The position numbers and the translations under genes are program-made. This document shows positions 14,934 through 62,924 of a stretch of DNA of 64,000 nucleotides, piece after piece (within the stretch, counting starts at the first letter, position 1; each line of letters starts with the position of its first letter). The stretch is from Thermoplasmata archaeon (GTDB lineage: Archaea; Thermoplasmatota; Thermoplasmata; Lutacidiplasmatales; UBA184), in NCBI GenBank assembly GCA_021827405.1, contig JAKAVY010000002.1:12464-76463 (forward strand), given 5' to 3'. The notes under the pieces were generated by a model. The model searched no databases, was not told where the DNA came from, and was given only the letters and a program-made list of their open reading frames with translations.

Positions 14934-15054
14934 CCCGCGAACGAAGGGGTCCCTTCCAGGGATTGGGAGGTTGAAGCCGGGAGATCTCGCAAGGGGATAT
15001 CGTATCCATCCCCTCCTCGCGGATCCAAGGGCGGGGCCTGCGATTGATACGTAC

Positions 15055-15070
15055 AGATACAGATTAAATA
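15055..15070 (+). promoter_or_regulatory. Candidate archaeal TATA box (ATTAAATA) upstream of the surface-protein gene
   Basis: The only AT-rich octamer in an otherwise GC-rich 200-nt intergenic region, about 80 nt upstream of the ATG at 15144. Confidence 0.3.
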
Positions 15071-15143
15071 TCGGAGGGAGCCATGTGTTCAGTCTCCGGA
15101 GCGCGACGGCCGGCTCCCCCCGGGGGTCGGAACCAGAGGGAAC

Positions 15144-17969
15144 ATGGGAGGGAGCCGGCGGGCATCCACGTCGAGACCCGGGGGTCCGCTTTGGAGGAGA
15201 GGGTTGTCGCCCCCACGTCGAGGCAAGCCCGCATTCGGCCGCGGATGCGGTGAGCCGGCCCCGGGCCCGAAACATGCGGTCGCCCTGCTCGGACTGATCG
15301 GCCTCCTCCTGGTTTCGGGATCGGCCCAGGGTCTGTTCGCGCCGGCGGAGCCCCTCTCGCGGGAGGCGGGGTCCGGTGCCCCCGGACATTCGGTCCTCCC
15401 TTCCCTGAGCGGCCGTCCCGCGCCCTCACGGCCGTCCGTCCCCGGGAAGGAGGCCACGACCAGACCCTTCGTCACCCCACCGACACCGATGTTCCGGGCC
15501 GGCCCTGAACCTCCCGTCTCCCCTCGGACGGGCATCGCGCATGCGAGCGGCACCGTCCTCTACGTGTCCCCCTCCGGCTCCAACGGGAACCCGTGTACCG
15601 CGACCGAGCCGTGCCGGCAGATCAACACCGCCGTAGACCGGGCCGCCCCGGGAGACACCGTGCTCGTGGCTAACGGGACGTACCTGGGCTTCGAACTGGA
15701 CGGGACTCACGGTGAGCCGGGCGCCCCGATCATCATCACCGACCCCGGCCACGACGCCGTGATCGAGACCAACGGGTCCTGCTGTAACTGGACCAGCCAG
15801 GGAGAGCAGGACCAGATGTACTTCAACCAGGTCTCCTGGGTGGTGGTCAACGGGCTCCGCAGCTACCAGATCCAATCCACCGTCCCTACCGCGAACCTCT
15901 GGGTGAGTCAGAGCAACAATCTCACGCTGAGCAATCTGACCTTCGAGAACGGCACCTACGTGAATGCCTCCACCGGGTGGCCGAGCAAGGCCAGCCTTTT
16001 CCTGGACCTCTCCACGAACATCACCATCGAGTATGACAACATCTCGGGGGCCAAGGGGTCCCATGGGATCTACTTCAACAACGACGGCCTGCCGTTGACC
16101 TACGGCGATGTGATCCGGAACAACATCCTCGACGATAACAATTGGACGGGGGTCCAACTGGTCTACGCCAGCCACTGCCAGGTGGAGGACAACGTGCTCG
16201 CCGGTAACGGGGCGGGGGGGGCCGCAGGGATCAGCCTTCGCGAAGTGGTGGACTCGGAGGTCCTGAACAATTTGGTCTATGACGAACTGGGGGCGGGCCT
16301 CAGCATCGTGGAGGATGCCTCCCCGGCGGGGGGAACGCAAACCTCGGGGAATCTCATCGCCTACAACACGGTGGTGGTGGGGGCAGCCGGGCGGGCCGCT
16401 CTCATTGTGGGGGCCGGATCCACGGGACCCGGGAATGTCCTGAGGGACAACATTCTCTACACGGAGGACAACGCCGTCTGGCCCTCTCTTGACTTCCAGG
16501 GCTCCAGCGGGACCGCAGACCTGGTGGGGGACCACAACGTGCTTCAATCTGTGGAAGACCCCAACGGAAGCTACTCCCTGGCCCAGTGGCAGTCCCTGGG
16601 CTACGAGAACGGTTCCCTCTCCGCCACCCCGTCGGAGCTCTTCGTCAACGCCACCCAGGGGGACTACCAGCTCGCTCCTCTATCCCCTGCGACGAACGCC
16701 GGCATCGCGATTCCCTCCGTGACCAGCGATATCCAGGGTGACCCACGTCCCGTCTCCGGGTCTTCGGACATCGGTTGCTATGAGAGCGCGAGTCCCTCGC
16801 TCCGGGCCGTGGCCTCGGCCTACCCGGGGAACGGGACCGCCCCTTTGACCGTGACCTTCACGGGCACCGGCTCCGGTGGGAGCGCTCCCTACCGCTACGA
16901 ATGGACCTACGGGGATGGGACCGCCCCCTCTCAGGCTGCCGACCCGCAGCACACGTACAACACCAGCGGCTCCTTTCCCGTGGAACTGACCATCGAGGAC
17001 GCCCGGGGGGGACTGGCCCACGCCTTCCTGAACGTCAGCGTGACGGCCCCCATCCCCTTCTCGGTCCAAATTCAAGCCAACCTCTCCGGTCCCACCGCGG
17101 GCGAGCCCGTGTTCTTCACCGGAGGGGCCTCGGGAGGGACTCCACCGTACTCCGGTTGGGATTGGACCTTTGGCGACGGCTCGACGGCCACGGGTCAGAA
17201 TGTCTCCCACGCGTTCACGAACCCCGGGAACTATAGCGTGGCTCTGAAGGCCACGGACTCACGGGATCGCACGGCCAACGCGTCCTTCCACCTCCAGGTT
17301 TGGGCTCAGCCAACCCTCGCCGTCTCCCTCCAGACCAATGTCACGAGCCTTCCGCTGGGGAGGGCGGTGGCGGTCTCGACCACGGTCAGCGGGGGGACCG
17401 GGCCGTACACGGTCCAGTACGCCGGCCTCCCCCCCGGTTGTGGCGGGGAGAGCGCCTTGGCCTTCTCCTGCGAGCCCGCACAGGCTGGCCATTACAACAT
17501 CACCGCGAAGGTGACGGACACGGTCGGCCGCGCTGGCCAGAGCCCTCCGGCCCCGCTATACGTCCAGGTTCCGTTGTTCCCCCTCTCCGTTCACCTGGAG
17601 ATCTCCTCCCCTTCGGTCCCGGCCGGCACCCTCGTGACGCTGACCTCGATCTCGTCGGGTGGGAGCGGGGGGCCCTTCTCTTACTCCTGGTCCGGACTCC
17701 CGGCGGGGTGCACGAACCTCGACGAGCCATCCCTGGACTGCGTTGTGTCGACCCCAGGGTCCTACCACATTTCCGTCCGGGTCACGGATGCCCAGGGGCA
17801 ATCCAACGCCAGCCAGCCGGTAGGTCTGGTGGTGGCGCCGTCCAAGGCACCTTCCCCGGGTGAGCCCTTCGGTCCCGAAGTGGTCTTCTCCATCACGGCC
17901 CTGATCGCAGGTGCGGTCGTGGTCGCCGGCGTGTATGTTCTACGCCGACGTGCGAGAGGGGCCCACTGA
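15144..17969 (+). CDS. Large secreted surface (S-layer-like) glycoprotein: parallel beta-helix (pectin-lyase fold) + PKD/Ig-like domains + C-terminal TM anchor
   Basis: Signal-peptide-like HAVALLGLIGLLLVSGSAQG. NGTY/NNLTLSNLTFENGTYVNAS beta-helix repeats. PKD motif (TAPLTVTFTGTGSGGSAPYRYEWTYGDGT). C-terminal VVFSITALIAGAVVVAGVYVLRRRAR. Very many N-x-S/T sequons. Start codon uncertain. Confidence 0.75.
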   Translation: MGGSRRASTSRPGGPLWRRGLSPPRRGKPAFGRGCGEPAPGPKHAVALLGLIGLLLVSGSAQGLFAPAEPLSREAGSGAPGHSVLPSLSGRPAPSRPSVPGKEATTRPFVTPPTPMFRAGPEPPVSPRTGIAHASGTVLYVSPSGSNGNPCTATEPCRQINTAVDRAAPGDTVLVANGTYLGFELDGTHGEPGAPIIITDPGHDAVIETNGSCCNWTSQGEQDQMYFNQVSWVVVNGLRSYQIQSTVPTANLWVSQSNNLTLSNLTFENGTYVNASTGWPSKASLFLDLSTNITIEYDNISGAKGSHGIYFNNDGLPLTYGDVIRNNILDDNNWTGVQLVYASHCQVEDNVLAGNGAGGAAGISLREVVDSEVLNNLVYDELGAGLSIVEDASPAGGTQTSGNLIAYNTVVVGAAGRAALIVGAGSTGPGNVLRDNILYTEDNAVWPSLDFQGSSGTADLVGDHNVLQSVEDPNGSYSLAQWQSLGYENGSLSATPSELFVNATQGDYQLAPLSPATNAGIAIPSVTSDIQGDPRPVSGSSDIGCYESASPSLRAVASAYPGNGTAPLTVTFTGTGSGGSAPYRYEWTYGDGTAPSQAADPQHTYNTSGSFPVELTIEDARGGLAHAFLNVSVTAPIPFSVQIQANLSGPTAGEPVFFTGGASGGTPPYSGWDWTFGDGSTATGQNVSHAFTNPGNYSVALKATDSRDRTANASFHLQVWAQPTLAVSLQTNVTSLPLGRAVAVSTTVSGGTGPYTVQYAGLPPGCGGESALAFSCEPAQAGHYNITAKVTDTVGRAGQSPPAPLYVQVPLFPLSVHLEISSPSVPAGTLVTLTSISSGGSGGPFSYSWSGLPAGCTNLDEPSLDCVVSTPGSYHISVRVTDAQGQSNASQPVGLVVAPSKAPSPGEPFGPEVVFSITALIAGAVVVAGVYVLRRRARGAH

Positions 17970-36295: not shown

Positions 36296-37612
36296 CTAGG
36301 GGCCGCCCTGGAGCATCAGGGACCGGGACGCGGCCTCGATCTCCCCCTGGACCTTCGCCCAGGGAAGCCGGACCAGCGCGCGGTCCCGGACCACCGCCTC
36401 CCCGTCCACGAACACCGTGTGGACCGCTCCCTCCGGCGCCCCGTAGACCAGGGAAGAGACCGCCTGGTCCAGACGGGTCGTCGCCAGGCTGGGGTGGGAG
36501 AGGTCGTAGAGCACCAGGTCCGCGCGGAAGCCGGGCGCCAGTTGCCCCAACTCATTCTCCCGGCCCAGGGCCCGGGCCCCCTCCCGGGTCGCCAGGTCCA
36601 GGGTCTCCTGGGCCGGGAGGACCGTGGGGTCATGCCGCGCGTGCTTCTGCAGAAGCGTCGCCAGATGCATCTCCCGCAGCAAGGAGAGGCCGTTGTTGGT
36701 GGTGGAGGAATCGGTCCCCAGGGCCACGGGGGAACCGGCGGCCCTGAGCTCGGGGACCGGACAGACCCCTCCCCCTCCCGAGGCCAGCTTGGTGTTCGAC
36801 CCGGGGCAGTGCGCGATGGCAACCTTCGATTCCCCGAGCGCCCGTATCTCCTCGGTAGTGAGCCAGACCCCGTGGGCGGCCACCTGGCGGGGCCCCAGGA
36901 GCCCCTTTTCGCGTAGCCAGAGCGCCGGGCGCAGCCCGGTGCGCTTCTCGTGCTCCACCACCTCGCCGCGGGTCTCCGAGAGATGATAATGGAGGAGGGT
37001 GCCCTCCCGAAGGGCGAGCTCCCGGGCCTTTCGCCAGGTCTCCTCCCCGCAGACGTAGACGCCCTGCGGCGCCACCAGAGGGCTGACCCAGCGATGTGCC
37101 TTCCAACGACCGAGGAAGCCCCGTGCGTTCTCCACCGGTACCCCCTTCTGCGTGGTCTTGTCCGGGTCCAGGACCGCCCAGCCGAGGAATCCCCGGATCC
37201 CCAGGCGGTCACAGGCCCGGGCCACGGCGTCCTGTCCATAATAGAGGTCCAGGAAGCTGGTGGTCCCGGAGAGGAGCATCTCGGCCCCTCCCAGGAGCGC
37301 CCCTAGCTCGATGTCCTTCTCGTCCCGGCGGGCATCCACCGCGAACATGCGCTCCAGGAAACGGGGGAAGTCCAGGTCGTCGGCGAGGCCGCGGAGGAGC
37401 GCGTTGGCCACATGGGTGTGGGCATTGATGAGACCGGGGGCCAGCAGGAACCCCCGGGCATCCACCTCCTCGTCGGCCCCCTCCCGCAAGCGGGGTCCCA
37501 CCGCCTCCACGCGGGGGCCCCGCAGGAGGAGGTCGCCTCTCAAAACGCGACGTCCCTCGTCCTGGGTGACGAGGAGCGCCTGGCGGAAGGCGACCGTACG
37601 TTCCTGGGCCAT
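36296..37612 (-). CDS. Amidohydrolase (MtaD-like 5-methylthioadenosine/S-adenosylhomocysteine deaminase, or related TRZ/ATZ family)
   Basis: LINAHTHV metal-binding HxH, HLSE, and ALGTDS motifs of the cytosine/guanine/MTA deaminase superfamily. Confidence 0.75.
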   Translation of the reverse strand: MAQERTVAFRQALLVTQDEGRRVLRGDLLLRGPRVEAVGPRLREGADEEVDARGFLLAPGLINAHTHVANALLRGLADDLDFPRFLERMFAVDARRDEKDIELGALLGGAEMLLSGTTSFLDLYYGQDAVARACDRLGIRGFLGWAVLDPDKTTQKGVPVENARGFLGRWKAHRWVSPLVAPQGVYVCGEETWRKARELALREGTLLHYHLSETRGEVVEHEKRTGLRPALWLREKGLLGPRQVAAHGVWLTTEEIRALGESKVAIAHCPGSNTKLASGGGGVCPVPELRAAGSPVALGTDSSTTNNGLSLLREMHLATLLQKHARHDPTVLPAQETLDLATREGARALGRENELGQLAPGFRADLVLYDLSHPSLATTRLDQAVSSLVYGAPEGAVHTVFVDGEAVVRDRALVRLPWAKVQGEIEAASRSLMLQGGP

Positions 37613-37685: not shown

Positions 37686-38123
37686 CTACGGCTTCAGCAG
37701 GATACCGGGCTGGCCCCAGAGCTTCAACCAGACCCGCTGGCCCACGAAGACCGTGGGGGAGAGCGACTCCCAGTACCGCACCTCCCACTTCCGGGCCCAC
37801 AGGACCACCTCCTTCACCGGAGCGTCAGGCCCCTTGGCCGGATGCAGGAAGTCCGAGACCGTCTTCAGGGTCGACCCGACGGATCCCTGGTCCCCGACCG
37901 CGGAGACGAGCAACGGTGCCGGATCCGGTAGCGGGATCGGAGGGTAGTCCGGGAGGGTCACCAGCCCCACCGGCGCCAGAGACCCCTGGCCCCGCTTAAG
38001 GGACTGGACCATGGCCTCGGCCGTCACCGGGGTCCCCCCCACGGAGGGGAAGGAGGCTTCGACCTCCGCGAACTGGCGAGCGAGGGGAAAGTCCTCCCAC
38101 CGGGGGACGACCGGGCTGGTCAT
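37686..38123 (-). CDS. Hypothetical protein
   Basis: 145-aa ORF filling a gap. No motif. Confidence 0.35.
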   Translation of the reverse strand: MTSPVVPRWEDFPLARQFAEVEASFPSVGGTPVTAEAMVQSLKRGQGSLAPVGLVTLPDYPPIPLPDPAPLLVSAVGDQGSVGSTLKTVSDFLHPAKGPDAPVKEVVLWARKWEVRYWESLSPTVFVGQRVWLKLWGQPGILLKP

Positions 38124-38178: not shown

Positions 38179-39231
38179 TCAGCGCGCCCGGCCGGGCAGT
38201 TCGGGCAGCAACAGGTGGCTGTCCCCGAACTCGTGCCAGAGGAGCCCGGACCGCACCGCCACCCGGTAGGCCTCCCGGATCCACGGGGGAGCTCCTAGGG
38301 CGAAGAGCAGGGCGAGGTGGCTGGTGAGCGGGTCGTGCAGACCGGTGAGCAGCCCTTGGACGGCCCGCAGCGGGCCGGGGGGATGCACATAGAGCCGGGT
38401 GAAGCCTTCCCGGGGCTGGACCTGGCCGTCCTCCCAGCTGGACTCCAGGGCCCGGACCACGGTGGTGCCCACCGCCACCACCCGGTGTCCCCGACGCCGG
38501 GTCTCGTTCACCGCCCGGGCGGTGGCTTCCGGGACCCGGAACGGCTCGGGGTACAGCACCTGCGACTCCACCCGGTCCGACTCCACCTCGAGGCTGGAGA
38601 CCCCGCAGTGAAGGACCACCGTGGCGAGACCCACCCCCCGGCACGAGAGCGCGTCCATCACCCGGGGGGTGAACGGGCGGCCCGCGGAAGGCATCTCCAT
38701 GCTCCCCGGGACCCGGCCGAAGAGGGTCTGGTAGGCGGAAAGGGGCCAGGGCCTCCCGACGTAACCGTAACGGATGGGGACGCCCCGCTCCGGGAGCCTC
38801 GGGAAGAGGTCGTCCTCGGTGGAGACGAACCAGAGACGGGGGATCCCGGGGAAGGGCCCCAGGAGCCGGGCCGGGACGCCGGAGACCCGGGCCGGGGACC
38901 CGGGGGCGAACGGCAACGGTCCGGGCGTCTCGAAGGACCTCCGGGGCTCGCCCAGGTAGAGGGTGGGCCCGAACCGGGTGCAGAGGTTCAGCAGGAACGG
39001 GCCTGAGCCCCCCTCGGACGGCAGGCTCGCCGGAAGGGTCGCGCTCTCGTTCACCACGAGGAGGTCGCCGGGCTCGAGGAACCGCGGCAGGTCATGGAAC
39101 CCGGCCACCCGATGGTCCTCCGGCCTCGAGACGAGGAGCCGGACCGCGTCCCGGGAGCCCCGGGAGACCTCGGGGGGCTCTCGGGCCACCCGGTCGGGGG
39201 GGCGGGGGAACCGGAGCTCCTCCCGCCTCAT
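38179..39231 (-). CDS. queA: S-adenosylmethionine:tRNA ribosyltransferase-isomerase homolog
   Basis: Colinear with E. coli QueA: FHDLPRFLEPGDLLVVNESATLPASL, YQTLFGRVPGSMEMPSAG, HRVVAVGTTVVRALES, GLLTGLHDPLTSHLALLFALGA. The ATG at 39231 overlaps the upstream stop (ATGA). Confidence 0.8.
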   Translation of the reverse strand: MRREELRFPRPPDRVAREPPEVSRGSRDAVRLLVSRPEDHRVAGFHDLPRFLEPGDLLVVNESATLPASLPSEGGSGPFLLNLCTRFGPTLYLGEPRRSFETPGPLPFAPGSPARVSGVPARLLGPFPGIPRLWFVSTEDDLFPRLPERGVPIRYGYVGRPWPLSAYQTLFGRVPGSMEMPSAGRPFTPRVMDALSCRGVGLATVVLHCGVSSLEVESDRVESQVLYPEPFRVPEATARAVNETRRRGHRVVAVGTTVVRALESSWEDGQVQPREGFTRLYVHPPGPLRAVQGLLTGLHDPLTSHLALLFALGAPPWIREAYRVAVRSGLLWHEFGDSHLLLPELPGRAR

Positions 39232-39947
39232 GGCCCACGACCCCAGATGTCCGCCTGCGCCCGGAAGCGATGCCCCGTCACCTGGTCCCCCGGCTGGTTC
39301 AGTAGCCAGGCGAAGAACGGCACAGTGACCTCCGGCAGGGGCCGGTCCGAGATGTCCTCGCCGGGAAAGGCCGCCTGGTGCATGGCGGTCCTCAGGTCCC
39401 CCGGGTCCACGTTCACCACCGTGATCCCCTCCTCCCGGAGCTCGTGGGCGAGGGTCTTCCCCACCAGGTCCAACGCCGCTTTGCTCGCTCCGTACCCCCC
39501 CCATCCGGGATATCCTCCCACCGCCGCGTCGCTGGTGACGTTCACCACCCACCCCCGGTTCCGGCGGAGCTGGGGGTAGGCCTCCTGGACGAGCGCCATC
39601 GGGCTCTCCAGATTCGTCCGCAGGACGGAGCGGAACGCCTCCAAGGGGTAGTCCACCAACCGGGGCAGAGGGCTCGGGCCCAGGTCGGAAGCGTTGTTCA
39701 CCAGGAGCCCGAGGCCTCCCCGGCGCTCTGCCGCGGAGACGAGGGCCCGGCGGTGGTCGGGATCGTTCACGTCCCCCGGGAGGGCCAGCACCGGCGCTCC
39801 GAGGGCCTCCAGCGCCTCGGCCCGGGTCTGCAACGCCTCCGCCCCCCGGGCCGTGAGGAGAAGGGACCACCCCTGCCCGGCCAGGAGACCCGCGAGCGTC
39901 GCCCCCAGGCCCCGGCTGGCCCCGGTGACGAGCGCGACCCGGGTCAT
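39228..39947 (-). CDS. SDR-family oxidoreductase
   Basis: VTGASRGLGATLA, NNAS...YGASKAAL. Translationally coupled on both sides (ATGA at 39944-39947 and 39228-39231). Confidence 0.8.
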   Translation of the reverse strand: MTRVALVTGASRGLGATLAGLLAGQGWSLLLTARGAEALQTRAEALEALGAPVLALPGDVNDPDHRRALVSAAERRGGLGLLVNNASDLGPSPLPRLVDYPLEAFRSVLRTNLESPMALVQEAYPQLRRNRGWVVNVTSDAAVGGYPGWGGYGASKAALDLVGKTLAHELREEGITVVNVDPGDLRTAMHQAAFPGEDISDRPLPEVTVPFFAWLLNQPGDQVTGHRFRAQADIWGRGP

Positions 39948-40597
39948 GTCCACCCCCGGGGATGCACCACGAAACGGCAGACCGGGTCCCCGGCCACCAC
40001 CCGGTGCTGCGCTTCCACCCGGGCGCCGAGGAGGTTCTCGAAGAGCTCGCGCTCGACGTCGCAGGCCTCCCCATACTCCCGGGCCAGGGCGAGGATGGGG
40101 CAGTTGTGCTCGACGAACGTCAGAGGGGCCCCCGGGCGGCGCGCCCCAGGCTCCGCCATGTAGCCCATCTCCTCCCGGAGCTGGACCAGGGCGCGGGCCC
40201 GCTCTGGCAGGTCCTTCCCCTCGAACCGGTGCCGTTCGCGCCGGGCCACCTCCCGTGCCCGCTCCCGAAGGAGCTCCACCACCGCTTCCCGGCCCAGGCG
40301 TTGCTGCACGAACCGCAGCGCGCATCCGGCCATTTCGCTGTACGCCTGCGGGAAGAGGGTGGCCGAGGCCACCTTGAGGCGGAAGCGGGCCCGGGGCCGG
40401 CCGCGACCCCCGGTCTCCAGGGTCCGGGAGACCAGGGCCCGCTCCTCCAGACGGTTCAAGTGTCGGAGGGTGGCCACCTTGCTGATGCCCAGGTCCTGGG
40501 CGATCTCCCCCAGGGAGCGGTCCGGCCGCCGCTTGAGGATCTCCAGGATGTCCCGTTGCCGTCGCGGGAAGCCCAGCAGCGCGTCCGGTCCGGTCAT
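39944..40597 (-). CDS. wHTH transcriptional regulator with Cys-containing C-terminal sensor domain
   Basis: ILEILKRRPDRSLGEIAQDLGISKVATLRHLNRLEERALV HTH, with C-terminal HNCPILALAREYGEAC. Confidence 0.55.
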   Translation of the reverse strand: MTGPDALLGFPRRQRDILEILKRRPDRSLGEIAQDLGISKVATLRHLNRLEERALVSRTLETGGRGRPRARFRLKVASATLFPQAYSEMAGCALRFVQQRLGREAVVELLRERAREVARRERHRFEGKDLPERARALVQLREEMGYMAEPGARRPGAPLTFVEHNCPILALAREYGEACDVERELFENLLGARVEAQHRVVAGDPVCRFVVHPRGWT

Positions 40598-40655
40598 CCC
40601 TGTCCCTCGCCGCGGCGAGGGAGGGACCCTTCTTAAACCGTATTGTTAACAAAAG

Positions 40656-41171: not shown

Positions 41172-43088
<1,917 letters not shown>

Positions 43089-59490: not shown

Positions 59491-60297
59491 CTAGAGGTGC
59501 GGGGCGAGCTCCGGCCGCCCCTCGGGGCCGAAGAGGGTCTTCTGCCGGGGGGTGGGGAGGGCCGAGCGCTCCCGGAACAGGCTCCGGAGCTTCTCCCCGG
59601 GGCTCGCCGAGACGGGGCGCCCGTGCCCCGGGAGGAGAAGCCGCACCTCCAGGTGCGTTAATCGCTCGAGCGACGAGATGGACCGATCCAGGTCGAAGGT
59701 GCTGCTCCGGGAGGGGAGGGTCAGCCGGCCCCCGGGGGCCACCACGGCATCCCCTGTGAAGAGGAACTTGCGCCCGGCATGGTAGAACGCCACGCTCCCG
59801 GGTGTGTGACCCGGCACGTGGAGGGCGGTGAAAGGGCCGAGGGTCTCCCCATCCTTCAACGGACGGTCGACCGAGACCGGGGGGCGTCGGACCAGCAGCC
59901 GGACCCAGAGAGGCGCGGTCCGGGGCCCCTGACCCTCGATCGCGGCCTGCTCGGAGACGTGGCAGGCGACCTTGGTCCCCCAGGCCCAACGGAGGTAGGC
60001 GGCGCCCCCCATGTGATCCGGGTGCTGGTGGGTGAGAAGGGAATAGCTCAGGTCGCGGGGGGTGAGCCCCACCCTTCCCAAGGCGGAGACGATGGGGTCC
60101 GCCCGCTCCGGGTAGCCCGCGTCGATCAGGTAGAGGGAAGAGCCCTCCCGTAAAACGAAGGAGTTGGCGATGGGTCCCTTGATCCAGCCCAAACCGCGGG
60201 CGAGGGGAAGGCCGGGAATGGTTCGGTCGGGTTCCGGGTCCACGGGGTCCGGGAGAGGGAGAGGGTCATAACCTTGCGGGAGACCCCCCTCCGGCAC
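59491..60297 (-). CDS. Metallo-beta-lactamase-fold hydrolase
   Basis: LTHQHPDHMGG (HxHxDH) and HVPGHTPGS. Confidence 0.75.
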   Translation of the reverse strand: MPEGGLPQGYDPLPLPDPVDPEPDRTIPGLPLARGLGWIKGPIANSFVLREGSSLYLIDAGYPERADPIVSALGRVGLTPRDLSYSLLTHQHPDHMGGAAYLRWAWGTKVACHVSEQAAIEGQGPRTAPLWVRLLVRRPPVSVDRPLKDGETLGPFTALHVPGHTPGSVAFYHAGRKFLFTGDAVVAPGGRLTLPSRSSTFDLDRSISSLERLTHLEVRLLLPGHGRPVSASPGEKLRSLFRERSALPTPRQKTLFGPEGRPELAPHL

Positions 60298-60371
60298 CCC
60301 CCTTCCCGGGGGTTCCCCCGGGGGGGGCCTGGACCTACCTTTATAGCCTGACCCCGCGAATCTTAGCCTTC

Positions 60372-62924
60372 GTGAACGCCCGCACGCTTGCCCTCGCGGC
60401 CCTGGTCGCTGGTCTGGCCCTTTCGTCGATCCTCCCGGGAGCCTTCGCCCAGGCCGCTCCCGGGAGTGCCCCGTCGCCCTTGACGACGGCCCGGAGCGCC
60501 GCCGCCTGCAACGTGAGCCCGAACCCGACCCTTCAGGTGTACTCCGGCCTGGACGCCGGTGGGGGGTTCGTGTCCCACTGCACGTTCAACCCAGGTGCCT
60601 GGACGGGGGAGAACGCGGTCTACTTCGAGATCTTCGACGGGGCGAAGGACCGCCAGGCGAACGTCACCCTGTTGGACCCTAATGCCACGGCCGACGGGTT
60701 GACCAACCCCGTGGCGCGCGCGACGGTGCCCCTGAGCCCCGCGGGGCCGGTGACGACCTTCGATAGCACCCAGAGCCTGCCGCCCCTCGGGCTGGCCATC
60801 CCGGCCTCGGTCCCCCAGTCCGGGACCTGGTGGCTCAACGTGACCACCGGGCCGGGCGCGAACCATACCACGCAGGTGCCCATCTCGGTGGACACGTTCT
60901 ACGTGGACCTGCAGGTCTCCGTCCCGGCCCCCCTGCCGGGAGCCACCGTGAGCGCGAACTTCCAGGTCCTCTCCTATGCCAGCGGGGGACCGGTCTCGCC
61001 GGCTCCCGCCCTGCGTCTCAAGGGCTGTGCCTACGAGAACGGGAACGCCACCTGCCAGCCGCTGCAGGACCTTCCCGTCCTCTCGGCGGAGAGCCAGGGG
61101 GCGTTCTCCTTCCTCCTGCCGGTGAACGCCACCAACTTCACCTCCCCCCGGATCACGCTCACGGCGAACCTGACCGCGGCGGGCCGGAGCTTCAGCGCGA
61201 CGGGCAGCGCTTCCTTCACCGTGCTCGCCCTAGACCCGCCGATCCTCTGTGCCTCGGACTCCCTGACCTATCTTCCGCTCACCTTCCCCGGATACTGTTA
61301 CCAACCGACGAGCACTTACACCGTGGGACAGCCGGTCTTCTTCGGGGTGCTGGCCGCGCTGGGGGACCCCTCGCTGGGGTACGTGGACACCCCCCTGGCC
61401 GGGGCCCCGGTGGACTTGAGCTACTCCCTGAACGGGCAACCGGTCGCCTCTCCGGCGCTTCCCCAGAACCTCACCACGGACTCCTCCGGGGCCGGGCTCC
61501 TGGTCCTTCCCACCGGCGGCCTCTCTCCCGGGGTGTTCTCCCTCCATGTGGAGGTCCAGACGCCCGGGGCCCCGGTCTTCAGCCAGAGCCGGGTCCTCAA
61601 CGTGACCCTGGTCTCCCCGATCGCCCCCGTCTCCCTGGTCCTCACCTTCAACCAGACGGTCTACGCTCCGGGGAGCACGGTCACCGGCCGGTTCTCCATC
61701 GTCAACGAGACCACAGGAGGGGCGCCGCCAGCCGGCTGGACCGCGTTCTACTACCAGGTCTACAGCTTTCCGAGCACGTCGTACTGCTCCGGGACCCCGC
61801 TCGTGGTATTGAGCGCGGGGAACCTCACCGGGGCTTCCGGGGCCCTCCCCCCCGTGTCTCTGGCCCCGTCGCTCCGGGGGAGCCTCTTGGTCCTGGTGGA
61901 GGCCCATAATGGGACCTTCCTGGCGCCCCCCGGGGCGGAGAGCTCCAGTTGTCTAGTGGTGCGTGCCCCGGGGATCAACCTTCTGGTGAGCGATGCCTCC
62001 TACGGGCCAGGCTCCACCGTCCAAGTGGTCCTTGCCCCGGTAGGCAGCCCCTTCTCCGGGGATACCTACCAGATCACGGTGGAGGCCTCGCCCGGGTCCG
62101 CTCCCGCTCCTCTCCCGGTGATCTACCAGGCGAACTCCACGACCCCCTGGTTCAGCTTTGTCATCCCCCGGGCGGGCACCGCGTCGAGCTACCAGATCAA
62201 CGCCGTGGTCCTAGGCCCCGGCCGGACGGTCCTGGCAGTCTCCTCCACCACGATCTACGAGTACGTGGGGATCAACCTGGTCCTGGGCGTCACCACCCTT
62301 TCCCACTACAGCGACGGTTCGTTCCAACCGGGAGAGACGATCACGGTGAGCTACCAGCTGGTGTCCGAGGGTGGGTACGTCCTGCAGGGGCCCTACCTGT
62401 TGGAGTATGGCTTCTACGACCAGGTGAACTACCAATCCGCCGTCGTCTCGGCGCCCTCGGGGACCTTTAGCGTGACGATCCCGGGGAGCGCCGGCAACGG
62501 GCTCTTGTTCTTGCAGGTCTACGGGTCGGGGCCGGCGCTGGTGGGCAGCGCGAGCTTCTCGGCGACTTCCGGGGTACTGGTGAACGGGCAGCCCTCCAGC
62601 CTCGCCTACGAGATCGTCCCCGGCAGCGGGTTCACCGCCGGACTGCTCTTGCTCCTCGTGCTCCTGGTGGTGGTGGGCCTCATGGCCTACGTACTTTACC
62701 GCCGGGCCACCTACGGCCGGCGACGGGGAGGCGGGGGGCACTTCGAGACGGAGCATGGACCGAAAGGAGAGGTGCTCCCGCCGGCGCCCTCCTCCGGGGG
62801 GGCCCCTCGGGACCCCTCCCCGGTCCAGGGCCCGGCCCCTGCGCCCGGCCCTTCCGCGCCCGAGGACTCCCCGGTGGAACCCCCGGTCTCCGCGAGCCCC
62901 TCCCCGCAGGACTATGTAGAGTGA
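60372..62924 (+). CDS. Large secreted surface (S-layer-like) glycoprotein with C-terminal TM anchor
   Basis: Signal peptide MNARTLALAALVAGLALSSILPGAFAQA. More than 25 N-x-S/T sequons (NVS, NAT, NHT, NGT, NFT, NLT...). C-terminal LLLLLVLLVVVGLMAYVLYRR followed by a Pro/Ser-rich cytoplasmic tail. Confidence 0.7.
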   Translation: MNARTLALAALVAGLALSSILPGAFAQAAPGSAPSPLTTARSAAACNVSPNPTLQVYSGLDAGGGFVSHCTFNPGAWTGENAVYFEIFDGAKDRQANVTLLDPNATADGLTNPVARATVPLSPAGPVTTFDSTQSLPPLGLAIPASVPQSGTWWLNVTTGPGANHTTQVPISVDTFYVDLQVSVPAPLPGATVSANFQVLSYASGGPVSPAPALRLKGCAYENGNATCQPLQDLPVLSAESQGAFSFLLPVNATNFTSPRITLTANLTAAGRSFSATGSASFTVLALDPPILCASDSLTYLPLTFPGYCYQPTSTYTVGQPVFFGVLAALGDPSLGYVDTPLAGAPVDLSYSLNGQPVASPALPQNLTTDSSGAGLLVLPTGGLSPGVFSLHVEVQTPGAPVFSQSRVLNVTLVSPIAPVSLVLTFNQTVYAPGSTVTGRFSIVNETTGGAPPAGWTAFYYQVYSFPSTSYCSGTPLVVLSAGNLTGASGALPPVSLAPSLRGSLLVLVEAHNGTFLAPPGAESSSCLVVRAPGINLLVSDASYGPGSTVQVVLAPVGSPFSGDTYQITVEASPGSAPAPLPVIYQANSTTPWFSFVIPRAGTASSYQINAVVLGPGRTVLAVSSTTIYEYVGINLVLGVTTLSHYSDGSFQPGETITVSYQLVSEGGYVLQGPYLLEYGFYDQVNYQSAVVSAPSGTFSVTIPGSAGNGLLFLQVYGSGPALVGSASFSATSGVLVNGQPSSLAYEIVPGSGFTAGLLLLLVLLVVVGLMAYVLYRRATYGRRRGGGGHFETEHGPKGEVLPPAPSSGGAPRDPSPVQGPAPAPGPSAPEDSPVEPPVSASPSPQDYVE

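Follow-up and report, generated by a model that had tools for sequence, protein, structure and literature searches.

The window analysed here is a 64-kb stretch (64,000 nucleotides) of contig JAKAVY010000002.1, assembly GCA_021827405.1, from a Thermoplasmata archaeon. On its minus strand three genes run head to tail (Table 1); they encode a winged helix-turn-helix (winged-HTH) regulator that resembles SufR, a classical short-chain dehydrogenase/reductase (SDR) and a member of the QueA family. The regulator gene ends ...GGG TGG ACA TGA at 39944 and the SDR gene starts with ATG ACC at 39947, the ATGA at 39944-39947 being common to both; the SDR gene ends in turn with ...GGG CCA TGA at 39228 and the QueA-family gene starts with ATG AGG at 39231, with a common ATGA at 39228-39231. 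These overlaps, read directly on the minus strand, bear out an initial annotation of the locus that had described a QueA homologue translationally coupled to an SDR and to a cysteine-containing winged-HTH regulator through ATGA overlaps at both junctions. A lone overlap of 4 nucleotides (nt) is commonplace, and it is conservation across loci that exceeds what chance would provide. We found the operon to be an archaeal copy of a conserved module in which a SufR-like regulator of the Fe-S type is joined by an SDR, NAD(P)-dependent and dedicated to the module, and by a QueA-like enzyme. Its three genes appear to be translationally coupled behind one promoter with a conserved palindromic candidate operator.

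The QueA-family open reading frame (ORF) matches PF02547 over its full length at 210.5 bits. QueA chains in the Protein Data Bank (1wdi, 1vky and 1yy3) match the protein at E values from 1e-46 to 1e-30, with 1wdi at 1e-46. An AlphaFold2 model of the protein has a predicted local distance difference test score of 91.2 and a predicted template modelling score of 0.92, and a Foldseek search with this model gave the same three chains as its only significant matches, at a probability of 1.00. As modelled, the protein keeps the QueA fold, which is the subject of a paper by Kozbial and Mushegian (2005), and it has in common with canonical QueA (EC 2.4.99.17; 1VKY, 1YY3, 1WDI) the two-domain architecture, the PF02547 family, a similar length and the conserved YQ, LHxG, GTT and GD. 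The ranges of isoelectric point and net charge in the subfamily to which it belongs overlap those of canonical QueA, and these values are uninformative as a proxy for tRNA binding. The scores against models of the QueA equivalogue tell of a greater distance: 159.7 bits for NF001140 (cut-off 324), 121.9 for TIGR00113 (cut-off 267.45) and 87.9 for NF002398 (cut-off 588), so that none of the three NCBIfam cut-offs is reached. Canonical QueAs of six phyla are 40-52% identical to the QueA of Thermus, whereas the QueA-like protein is only 29-33% identical to canonical sequences.

A comparison of conserved residues, proposed when the locus was first annotated, gave a divided result when 81 subfamily sequences were set against 8 canonical QueAs. 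The core is kept: 39 positions are conserved in both groups alike, among them Y167-Q168, G176, P181, A183, F187, L207-H208, G210, E229, A253, G255-T256-T257, R260, E263, H299 and G336-D337. At 12 other positions, however, each group has its own conserved residue, and 37 positions that are conserved in canonical QueA only are not kept in the subfamily. The 12 switches, from canonical to QueA-like, are V to T65, P to I153, P to Y155, V to A178, A to M180, T to S182, L to R185, H to P186, N to G297, L to H305, V to L309 and F to W332. They convert AGLHF to AGRPF, TNFH to TGLH and LPPYI to PIRYGY, and they sit in the loops where canonical QueA is at its most conserved (GSVAAPTAGLHFT, TNFHLP). The subfamily has 34 conserved positions of its own, including E95, R97, E179, S213, E215, H333 and E334; H305, one of the 12 switches, is likewise a conserved polar residue peculiar to it. 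The QueA-like protein does not have the canonical motif set LPPYI, GSVAAPTAGLHFT, LHVGxGTF, TNFHLPxSTLLML and FGDAM; it carries all of the subfamily motifs PGS[AM]EMPSA(G/A)RPFT, LHxGVSSxE, TG(L/F)HDPxxSHLA and WHEFGDS[HN], which are invariant or nearly so among 82 homologues.

The phylogeny proposed at the same time points the same way: in a neighbour-joining tree, drawn without support values, the SDR-coupled subfamily clusters apart from every canonical QueA. The name 'clear QueA' that the gene was first given is therefore not sustained, because the protein scores far below the three equivalogue cut-offs and falls in a separate group with switched motif residues. By these sequence comparisons it is a member of a distinct QueA-family group and not an equivalogue of the tRNA enzyme. 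We consider it very probable that this group is an SDR-coupled subfamily with a role other than queuosine (Q) synthesis.

A divergent QueA paralogue of about 32% identity was seen on Sinorhizobium meliloti pRmeGR4a (L094, 4992-6017; WP_015241376) and also on Rhizobium megaplasmids. On pRmeGR4a it is clustered with genes for an NTF2-family protein, a small hypothetical protein, two radical-SAM proteins, a diaminopimelate-decarboxylase-like protein and a CPBP protease, in what looks like a natural-product or peptide-modification cluster. Like the window protein it is a divergent QueA-family member outside a Q-pathway context, and it is an apparent second recruitment of the QueA fold; it differs from the window protein in its branch, in its context and in having no SDR partner.

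The QueA-like subfamily is widespread. A HMMER search of 1.84 billion representative proteins gave 595 matches at E<=1e-30, and a scan of one genome per species for the patterns WHEFGDS[HN] and PGS[AM]EMPSA gave at least 593 confirmed stretches, of which the best 80 were examined; with L001, L007 and L011 these make 83 distinct loci. The phyla represented include Chloroflexota, Actinomycetota, Deinococcota, Acidobacteriota and Firmicutes. Among the best 80 we found Anaerolineae, Caldilinea, Dehalococcoidia, Chloroflexia and Thermomicrobia; Acidimicrobiia, Nonomuraea, Mycobacterium, Pseudonocardiales, Rubrobacteraceae and Solirubrobacteraceae; Trueperaceae and Deinococcaceae; Thermoanaerobaculia, Bryobacterales and other Acidobacteriota; and Alicyclobacillaceae, Thermaerobacter, Dormibacteria and Eremiobacterota. 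The archaea among them are many Thermoplasmata (including Ca. Lutacidiplasma), a metagenome-assembled genome (MAG) of Bathyarchaeota, a MAG labelled Methanobacteriota and a Haloferacaceae chromosome. The presence of a QueA-family gene in an archaeon, presented at first as unusual, is thus neither unique to the window nor the first such case, with subfamily members in many Thermoplasmata and in Bathyarchaeota and Haloferacaceae MAGs. The subfamily is also present in cultured Mycobacterium colombiense and M. paraffinicum and in many Mycobacterium sp. isolates (P0440, P0460, P0487, P0494, P0503).

As the initial annotation had it, the gene is a QueA-family homologue of bacterial origin in an archaeal genome: its named best matches are Chloroflexi and one Planctomycetaceae MAG, at 57-63% identity, which is more than the 50-55% by which the Nop5 of the host resembles that of other Thermoplasmata. 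In the neighbour-joining tree the early-diverging members of the subfamily are Firmicutes and Actinomycetota, and the archaeal members form at least three clusters that are interleaved with Trueperaceae and Chloroflexota. This pattern suggests that the module is bacterial in origin and crossed into archaea, probably more than once. Its transfer into the window lineage would be old, because the synteny is kept in a relative at 67% identity and the composition of the operon matches that of the host.

The SDR is the constant companion of the QueA-like protein. It matches PF00106 at 143 bits, with no NCBIfam model reaching its cut-off, and has the motifs of a classical SDR (TGASRGLG, NNAS, the S in VTSDAA, and YGASK); an arginine after strand beta-2 suggests the use of NADP(H). 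Comparison with solved and curated relatives gave generic YciK-like and FabG-like matches only, none at cut-off. In tblastn searches with the window SDR an orthologue was found upstream of the QueA-like gene in 81 of the 83 loci, at 42-81% identity, which is far above the usual level for SDR paralogues. The two exceptions are L074, where the QueA-like gene starts at the contig edge, and L080, where there is a partial SDR match only. At 69 of the 82 loci where an SDR is found no more than 1.5 kb upstream, exactly 4 nt (NTGA) are common to the end of the SDR gene and the start of the QueA-like gene, and a bacterial locus with precomputed annotation has the same arrangement. The pairing is near-universal in the subfamily and spans at least six phyla of bacteria and three lineages of archaea. 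One of the 595 HMMER matches (P0307; L101, 793-2562) joins an N-terminal SDR domain to a C-terminal QueA-like one in a single ORF of 589 aa; its contig is 2977 nt long and comes from one sequencing run.

Apart from the SDR, the company that the QueA-like gene keeps is sparse. With flank genes crudely called, all-against-all clustering of the flank ORFs of the examined loci gave no conserved neighbour beyond the SDR, SufR-like and MerR/SoxR genes, and a Pfam census of 111 flanking ORFs gave no recurrent transporter, tRNA enzyme or SAM-cycle gene (SAM, S-adenosylmethionine). Neither approach found a tgt or que gene that recurs near the 80 loci; none was identified in the 64 kb of the window, and no QueG or QueH was identified in the window or among the recurrent neighbours. 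At the Rfam gathering threshold the window contains two distant tRNAs only, and 18 bacterial loci gave tRNAs only and no preQ1 or SAM riboswitch.

The pair also occurs where a substrate for QueA would be missing. The 11.85-Mb replicon of Nonomuraea gerenzanensis ('plasmid I') carries it, with the ATGA overlap and at 46.5% identity to the window protein. We searched the plasmid collection by tblastn with the Tgt proteins of E. coli and Nocardia (E<=1e-5). The E. coli query matched E. coli records at 100%, and each query gave 71 records, all accounted for by organism; neither gave a match in the 11.85-Mb Nonomuraea gerenzanensis record at that threshold. Actinobacterial Tgt orthologues are 68-71% identical to the Nocardia query. 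With no Tgt there is no preQ1 in tRNA and therefore nothing for QueA to act on.

These results bear on the possibility that the protein is a working tRNA QueA, in hosts that make queuosine or epoxyqueuosine with the SDR in the place of QueG or QueH. The QueA fold and the 39 core positions held in common with canonical QueA would suit such a role, and Castelle et al. 2021 (PMC8204110) described a canonical bacterial pathway of QueA, QueH and Tgt, with co-located genes, in the DPANN and Methanosarcinales archaea. Those are likewise QueA-family genes of bacterial origin in archaea, and their co-location with QueH and Tgt points to genuine Q synthesis, but the window has a different subfamily with an SDR and a SufR-like protein as partners, and has no Tgt or QueH in its 64 kb. 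The low equivalogue scores and the switches in the most conserved canonical loops also speak against this role, as does control of the SoxR/SufR-like kind, which would be unusual for a housekeeping tRNA-modification gene. QueG (cobalamin/Fe-S) and QueH (DUF208) catalyse the step that follows QueA in the Q pathway; the SDR has no homology to either, matches SDR families only (Pfam, NCBIfam), uses another cofactor and has another chemistry. SDR enzymes transfer hydride to carbonyls, and this does not fit the deoxygenation of an epoxide to an alkene. The suggestion in the initial annotation that the SDR might replace QueG or QueH fails on distribution too: this SDR accompanies the subfamily almost without exception in both domains, and it does so in the Tgt-less record too, where Q synthesis would be impossible. 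Because of that Tgt-less record, the lack of que neighbours and of a riboswitch, and the co-location with QueH and Tgt in the published archaeal cases, Q synthesis in this operon, and a place for the SDR in it, is very unlikely.

Another nucleic acid might be the target. The pair could make a new, stress-induced modification on some other amine-bearing nucleoside of tRNA, rRNA or DNA by ribosyl transfer to an acceptor that is not preQ1. The one relative of known function is a tRNA-modifying enzyme, the protein keeps the beta-barrel insertion domain, which has conserved motifs of its own, and the range of isoelectric points overlaps that of canonical QueA. Set against this, the flank census found no recurrent nucleic-acid-modifying or base-exchange enzyme nearby, an obligate SDR partner is atypical for RNA-modification enzymes, and we know of no amine-bearing nucleoside common to Actinomycetota, Chloroflexota, Deinococcota and Thermoplasmata. 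We regard this explanation as improbable.

The regulator of the window operon has an N-terminal winged HTH, with matches to MarR_2, HTH_24 and HTH_5 at residues 9-65, and aligns with the SufR model TIGR02702 over profile positions 3-208 of 208 at 88.5 bits (cut-off 178.8). It has cysteines at 92, 166, 179 and 207, giving the pattern C166-x12-C179-x27-C207. In the SufR-like orthologues of 22 loci, from archaea and bacteria, the three C-terminal cysteines are invariant while C92 is present in only 8, and the cysteines noted in the initial annotation are in this way confirmed together with the winged HTH. The gene is upstream of the SDR in 14 archaeal loci, which all have the order regulator-SDR-QueA-like that had been singled out for comparison with other genomes; the regulator and SDR genes overlap by 4 nt in 13 of the 14. 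In Acidimicrobiia and other Actinomycetota it is found downstream of the QueA-like gene instead, with a 4-nt overlap in 5 of 7 cases, and overall it overlaps its neighbour in 18 of 21 loci.

In cyanobacteria and actinobacteria SufR itself, a [4Fe-4S] protein, represses the suf operon. The window regulator resembles it in the N-terminal winged HTH, the conserved C-terminal cysteines and the full-length alignment, but differs in its score (88 vs 179 bits) and in being embedded in, and overlapping, the SDR/QueA-like operon. Neither the window nor any of the loci inspected has suf genes beside the SufR-like gene, and because of this the regulator appears to be a paralogue that is dedicated to the SDR/QueA-like operon; a genuine SufR of a suf operon was considered as an identity for the gene and rejected for those loci, where no suf genes follow.

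Upstream of the regulator gene the DNA has the features expected of an archaeal promoter under local control. The element TTTAAGAA is about 33 nt upstream of the regulator ATG in an AT-rich island of a 70% G+C genome, reads TATAAA in relatives, and is a candidate promoter element for the three-gene operon. In 13 archaeal loci (Thermoplasmata, Bathyarchaeota) the TATA-like box is preceded, at a distance of 5-8 nt, by a dyad of the TTTGT(T/G/A)AAC type; in L040 this dyad is the perfect 14-mer TTTTGTTAACAAAA and its counterpart in the window is TTGTTAACAA. This dyad, of the TTTGTTAACAAA type, would be the operator of the SufR-like regulator, and the layout of dyad and TATA-like box fits an autoregulated archaeal promoter. 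A perfect G+C-rich dyad, CCCTCGCCGCGGCGAGGG, is located between the TATA-like box and the regulator start codon; L011, L007, L049 and L038 have dyads of other sequence at the equivalent position. It could be a leader hairpin or a second operator.

A second, unrelated redox sensor is found beside the pair in bacteria. In 13 bacterial loci, from Acidimicrobiia, Mycobacterium, Pseudonocardiales, Acidobacteriota and one alphaproteobacterial MAG, a MerR-family gene (soxR) is divergent from the SDR gene and just upstream of it. The SoxR [2Fe-2S] motif CIGCGCLSLxxC is present in all eight copies inspected, and the one copy tested scored 191.6 bits against the SoxR equivalogue TIGR01950 (cut-off 116.9). 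Seven of eight printed intergenic regions have a TTGAC element followed by a dyad such as TTGACTTCAAGTGCACTTGAAGTC or TTGACTTAAACATTAGTTTAAGTC, which we take to resemble the SoxR box of E. coli, CCTCAAGTTAACTTGAGG. The divergent soxR gene and box are features that these 13 loci share with the SoxR regulons of non-enteric bacteria, in which this [2Fe-2S] activator of the MerR type has small sets of oxidoreductases, monooxygenases and transporters as targets; a QueA-family target is not among the SoxR targets described in the searchable papers. The window has no soxR, and has the SufR-like regulator in its place. With SufR-like genes beside the pair in some lineages and soxR in others, two unrelated redox sensors, both apparently of the Fe-S type, have been recruited to it. 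An adjacent redox regulator of the Fe-S type, represented in the window by the SufR-like gene, is frequent in the subfamily but not universal, and regulation by redox stress in the window archaeon is likely.

Control of another kind was seen at other loci. In Anaerolineales (L009/L010, 9088-10919; P0416) genes for a GAF-HisKA_3 sensor kinase and a LuxR-type response regulator come after the pair, which adds a third type to the regulators associated with the module. A cross-phylum upstream architecture without an adjacent regulator was found at the bacterial loci L020, L022, L028, L030, L048, L060, L063, L069, L078, L084, L092 and L021: about 120 nt upstream of the SDR, it consists of a dyad, about 25 nt, C[CG]GATG[TC]G, 17-19 nt and a TAnnnT box. 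The dyad at these regulator-less loci is GGTCCTAGGACC or CCTGTCCTTTCGTCCAGG, with no Rfam match, while Chloroflexi loci have CTGTAC-N4-GTACAG in its stead. The start codons of Nonomuraea are leaderless in appearance.

The SoxR connection lends some appeal to a role without SAM, in which the QueA fold has been repurposed, for example for the binding or isomerisation of a compound, nucleoside-like or redox-active, that the SDR then reduces, as a detoxification pair of the SoxR type. Outside the enteric bacteria, the genes under SoxR control are typically those for oxidoreductases and for enzymes that modify redox-active metabolites, and the QueA-like protein has many switched motif positions and newly conserved His and Glu residues (H305, H333, E334, E179 and E215). 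However, the 39 common positions are the most conserved of the family and are located in the catalytic alpha/beta domain, and because they are kept there the SAM-handling core is expected to be intact. Repurposing without SAM seems to us unlikely.

Table 1. Features of the three-gene operon and its surroundings in the 64-kb window
Feature	Position	Strand	Remarks
QueA-like protein, 350 aa	38179..39231	-	PF02547; SDR-coupled QueA-like subfamily, by sequence not a tRNA QueA equivalogue
Classical SDR oxidoreductase, 239 aa, partner of QueA-like protein	39228..39947	-	PF00106; stop overlaps QueA-like start (ATGA)
SufR-like winged-HTH regulator, 217 aa, putative Fe-S redox sensor	39944..40597	-	TIGR02702 sub-threshold; stop overlaps SDR start (ATGA)
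Palindrome TTGTTAACAA, candidate operator for SufR-like regulator	40643..40652	.	Predicted function; conserved dyad in 13 archaeal loci
TATA-box-like element TTTAAGAA	40630..40637	-	Predicted function; position kept in 13 archaeal loci
G+C-rich inverted repeat CCCTCGCCGCGGCGAGGG	40604..40621	.	Possible leader hairpin or second operator
OsmC-family protein, 149 aa	40656..41105	-	PF02566 at 48.8 bits; lineage-specific neighbour
145-aa ORF without family match	37686-38123	-	Lineage-specific, downstream of QueA-like gene
ATZ/TRZ-type amidohydrolase resembling nucleoside deaminases	36296-37612	-	PRK06380 at 392 bits (cut-off 567)

The genes that flank the operon in the window do not appear to belong to the module. 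The OsmC gene is, as first annotated, just upstream on the same strand, 58 nt from the regulator gene and separated from it by the promoter-like spacer. Its adjacency to the module is confined to the window lineage, L007 and L011, the three closest lineages; the amidohydrolase gene and the 145-aa ORF are next to the module in these three only. All three genes were considered as module members and were rejected as lineage-specific. The amidohydrolase, for which PRK06380 is the best model and the 5'-deoxyadenosine deaminase model scores 292 against a cut-off of 522, resembles deaminases of 5'-deoxyadenosine, 5'-methylthioadenosine or S-adenosylhomocysteine, with every match below cut-off. That it is linked to a SAM-derived by-product of the module is conceivable, though unsupported.

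The first annotation allowed that the contig might be bacterial, and the bacterial affinity of the closest named QueA-like homologues could be taken as a sign that a bacterial fragment was mis-binned or mis-assembled into an archaeal contig. The arrangement is, however, reproduced: at least six independent assemblies encode the exact QueA-like protein, on contigs of 35-112 kb that have the same gene order over 21 kb and archaeal markers on both sides. The flanks of these contigs carry genes for NAC, diphthamide synthase (Dph2), Nop56/58, HMG-CoA reductase, DUF131, GyrB and GrpE; PAC2 is also encoded in the window. The same module context recurs in two more distant archaeal relatives, with identities of 80% and 67%, and base composition is uniform, the G+C content being 0.73 across the operon and about 0.70 on each side, with no anomaly. 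On these gene contents the contig can be taken as archaeal, with chimerism and contamination excluded for practical purposes, and the chance that the arrangement is an artefact is negligible. The named best matches of Nop5 are all Thermoplasmata or Euryarchaeota, and because it is only 50-55% identical to these named archaeal relatives the host would be a deep-branching archaeon of the Thermoplasmata type.

Elsewhere in the window, 619-1269 on the minus strand encodes a homologue of nickel superoxide dismutase (PF09055, 148 bits) with an N-terminal extension. This enzyme is known mainly from Actinomycetota and cyanobacteria, and the gene may be another bacterial acquisition with an oxidative-stress theme. 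The GyrB of L007 (3557-6067, 836 aa), the relative at 67% identity, contains an intein (PF14890), and the window GyrB (41172-43085, 637 aa) does not. On the plus strand, 15048-17966 encodes a 973-aa protein with PKD repeats and a NosD-like beta-helix, probably a surface protein, and 60183-62921 is a 913-aa ORF without a Pfam match.

Our preferred reading, to which we give a probability of about 0.6, is that the SDR and the QueA-like protein form a horizontally acquired two-enzyme module, regulated by redox stress, that performs a different SAM reaction of the QueA type together with a redox step. It was foreshadowed in the initial annotation, which offered the recruitment of a QueA paralogue to a different SAM-dependent reaction as its alternative, and that is the side which the evidence favours. 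In such a scheme the Fe-S sensor would report oxidative or redox-cycling stress and the operon would then be expressed. The QueA-like enzyme would use SAM by chemistry of the QueA type, for which a mechanism has reportedly been proposed by Iwata-Reuyl and co-workers: C5' would be deprotonated to give a sulfonium ylide, the ribose ring would open with loss of adenine, a nucleophile would add, and a carbocycle would form with displacement of methionine. The acceptor would be something other than preQ1-tRNA, most likely a small molecule; transfer to such an acceptor is a proposal that we hold at somewhat less than even odds. The SDR, made in equal amounts and probably in complex with the QueA-like enzyme, would perform the coupled alcohol/carbonyl redox step, either on the acceptor or on the product derived from ribose. 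More speculatively still, the module may belong to a so far unrecognised, cross-domain stress pathway, switched on by Fe-S sensors (SufR-like or SoxR), in which ylide chemistry and the SDR convert the ribose of SAM into a new carbocyclic or ring-opened C5 unit. This unit would be attached to an acceptor other than tRNA or set free as a metabolite, possibly a reductone-like one; the extension is doubtful.

Several points weigh against this interpretation of a stress-regulated, SAM-dependent module. The neighbour-joining tree has no support values. The absence of Tgt applies to one bacterial record, the 11.85-Mb replicon among those of Nonomuraea gerenzanensis, and not to the window archaeon. 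The use of SAM and the identity of the acceptor are read from retained core residues, and we know of no ligand-bound QueA structure. The single-ORF protein P0307 could be a natural fusion or the artefact of a 1-nt indel at the usual 4-nt overlap. Binding of an Fe-S cluster by the SufR-like protein is deduced from its cysteine pattern alone. An adjacent regulator of the Fe-S type is present in only 35 of about 80 loci (22 SufR-like, 13 soxR), others having a GAF histidine kinase or unexplained upstream dyads, and redox control may therefore not extend to all of them.

A QueA-family gene in an archaeon is in itself no novelty (PMC8204110). In the literature on QueA-like paralogues, on QueA in archaea and Thermoplasmata, and on QueA with SoxR, we found no description of an SDR-linked QueA subfamily or of control of the SoxR/SufR type. 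Wherever members of this subfamily are named, as in Mycobacterium, Chloroflexi and archaeal MAGs, they are labelled 'S-adenosylmethionine:tRNA ribosyltransferase-isomerase' or 'queuosine biosynthesis protein'. In our view these labels mislead, inviting the false inference of queuosine synthesis, notably in the Archaea and in Tgt-less Actinomycetota. In distinction from canonical QueA, the QueA-like protein has a near-obligate SDR partner and Fe-S-sensor regulation, and the SDR/QueA-like pair is found in a Tgt-less record and in archaea.

The finding is a tractable lead for enzyme discovery and for the correction of annotation rather than a categorical surprise. It is tractable because the pair consists of just two enzymes and is present in cultured Nonomuraea and Mycobacterium (M. 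colombiense, M. paraffinicum), with release of adenine and methionine, consumption of NAD(P)H and induction under redox stress as clear read-outs. To our knowledge QueA is the only enzyme that transfers the ribosyl part of SAM, and another widespread branch, permanently tied to a redox partner, would bring a new substrate to this rare chemistry. The wiring of the pair to SufR-like and SoxR regulators points to an unrecognised component of the response to oxidative or redox-cycling stress in soil bacteria and archaea, one that has moved between the domains.

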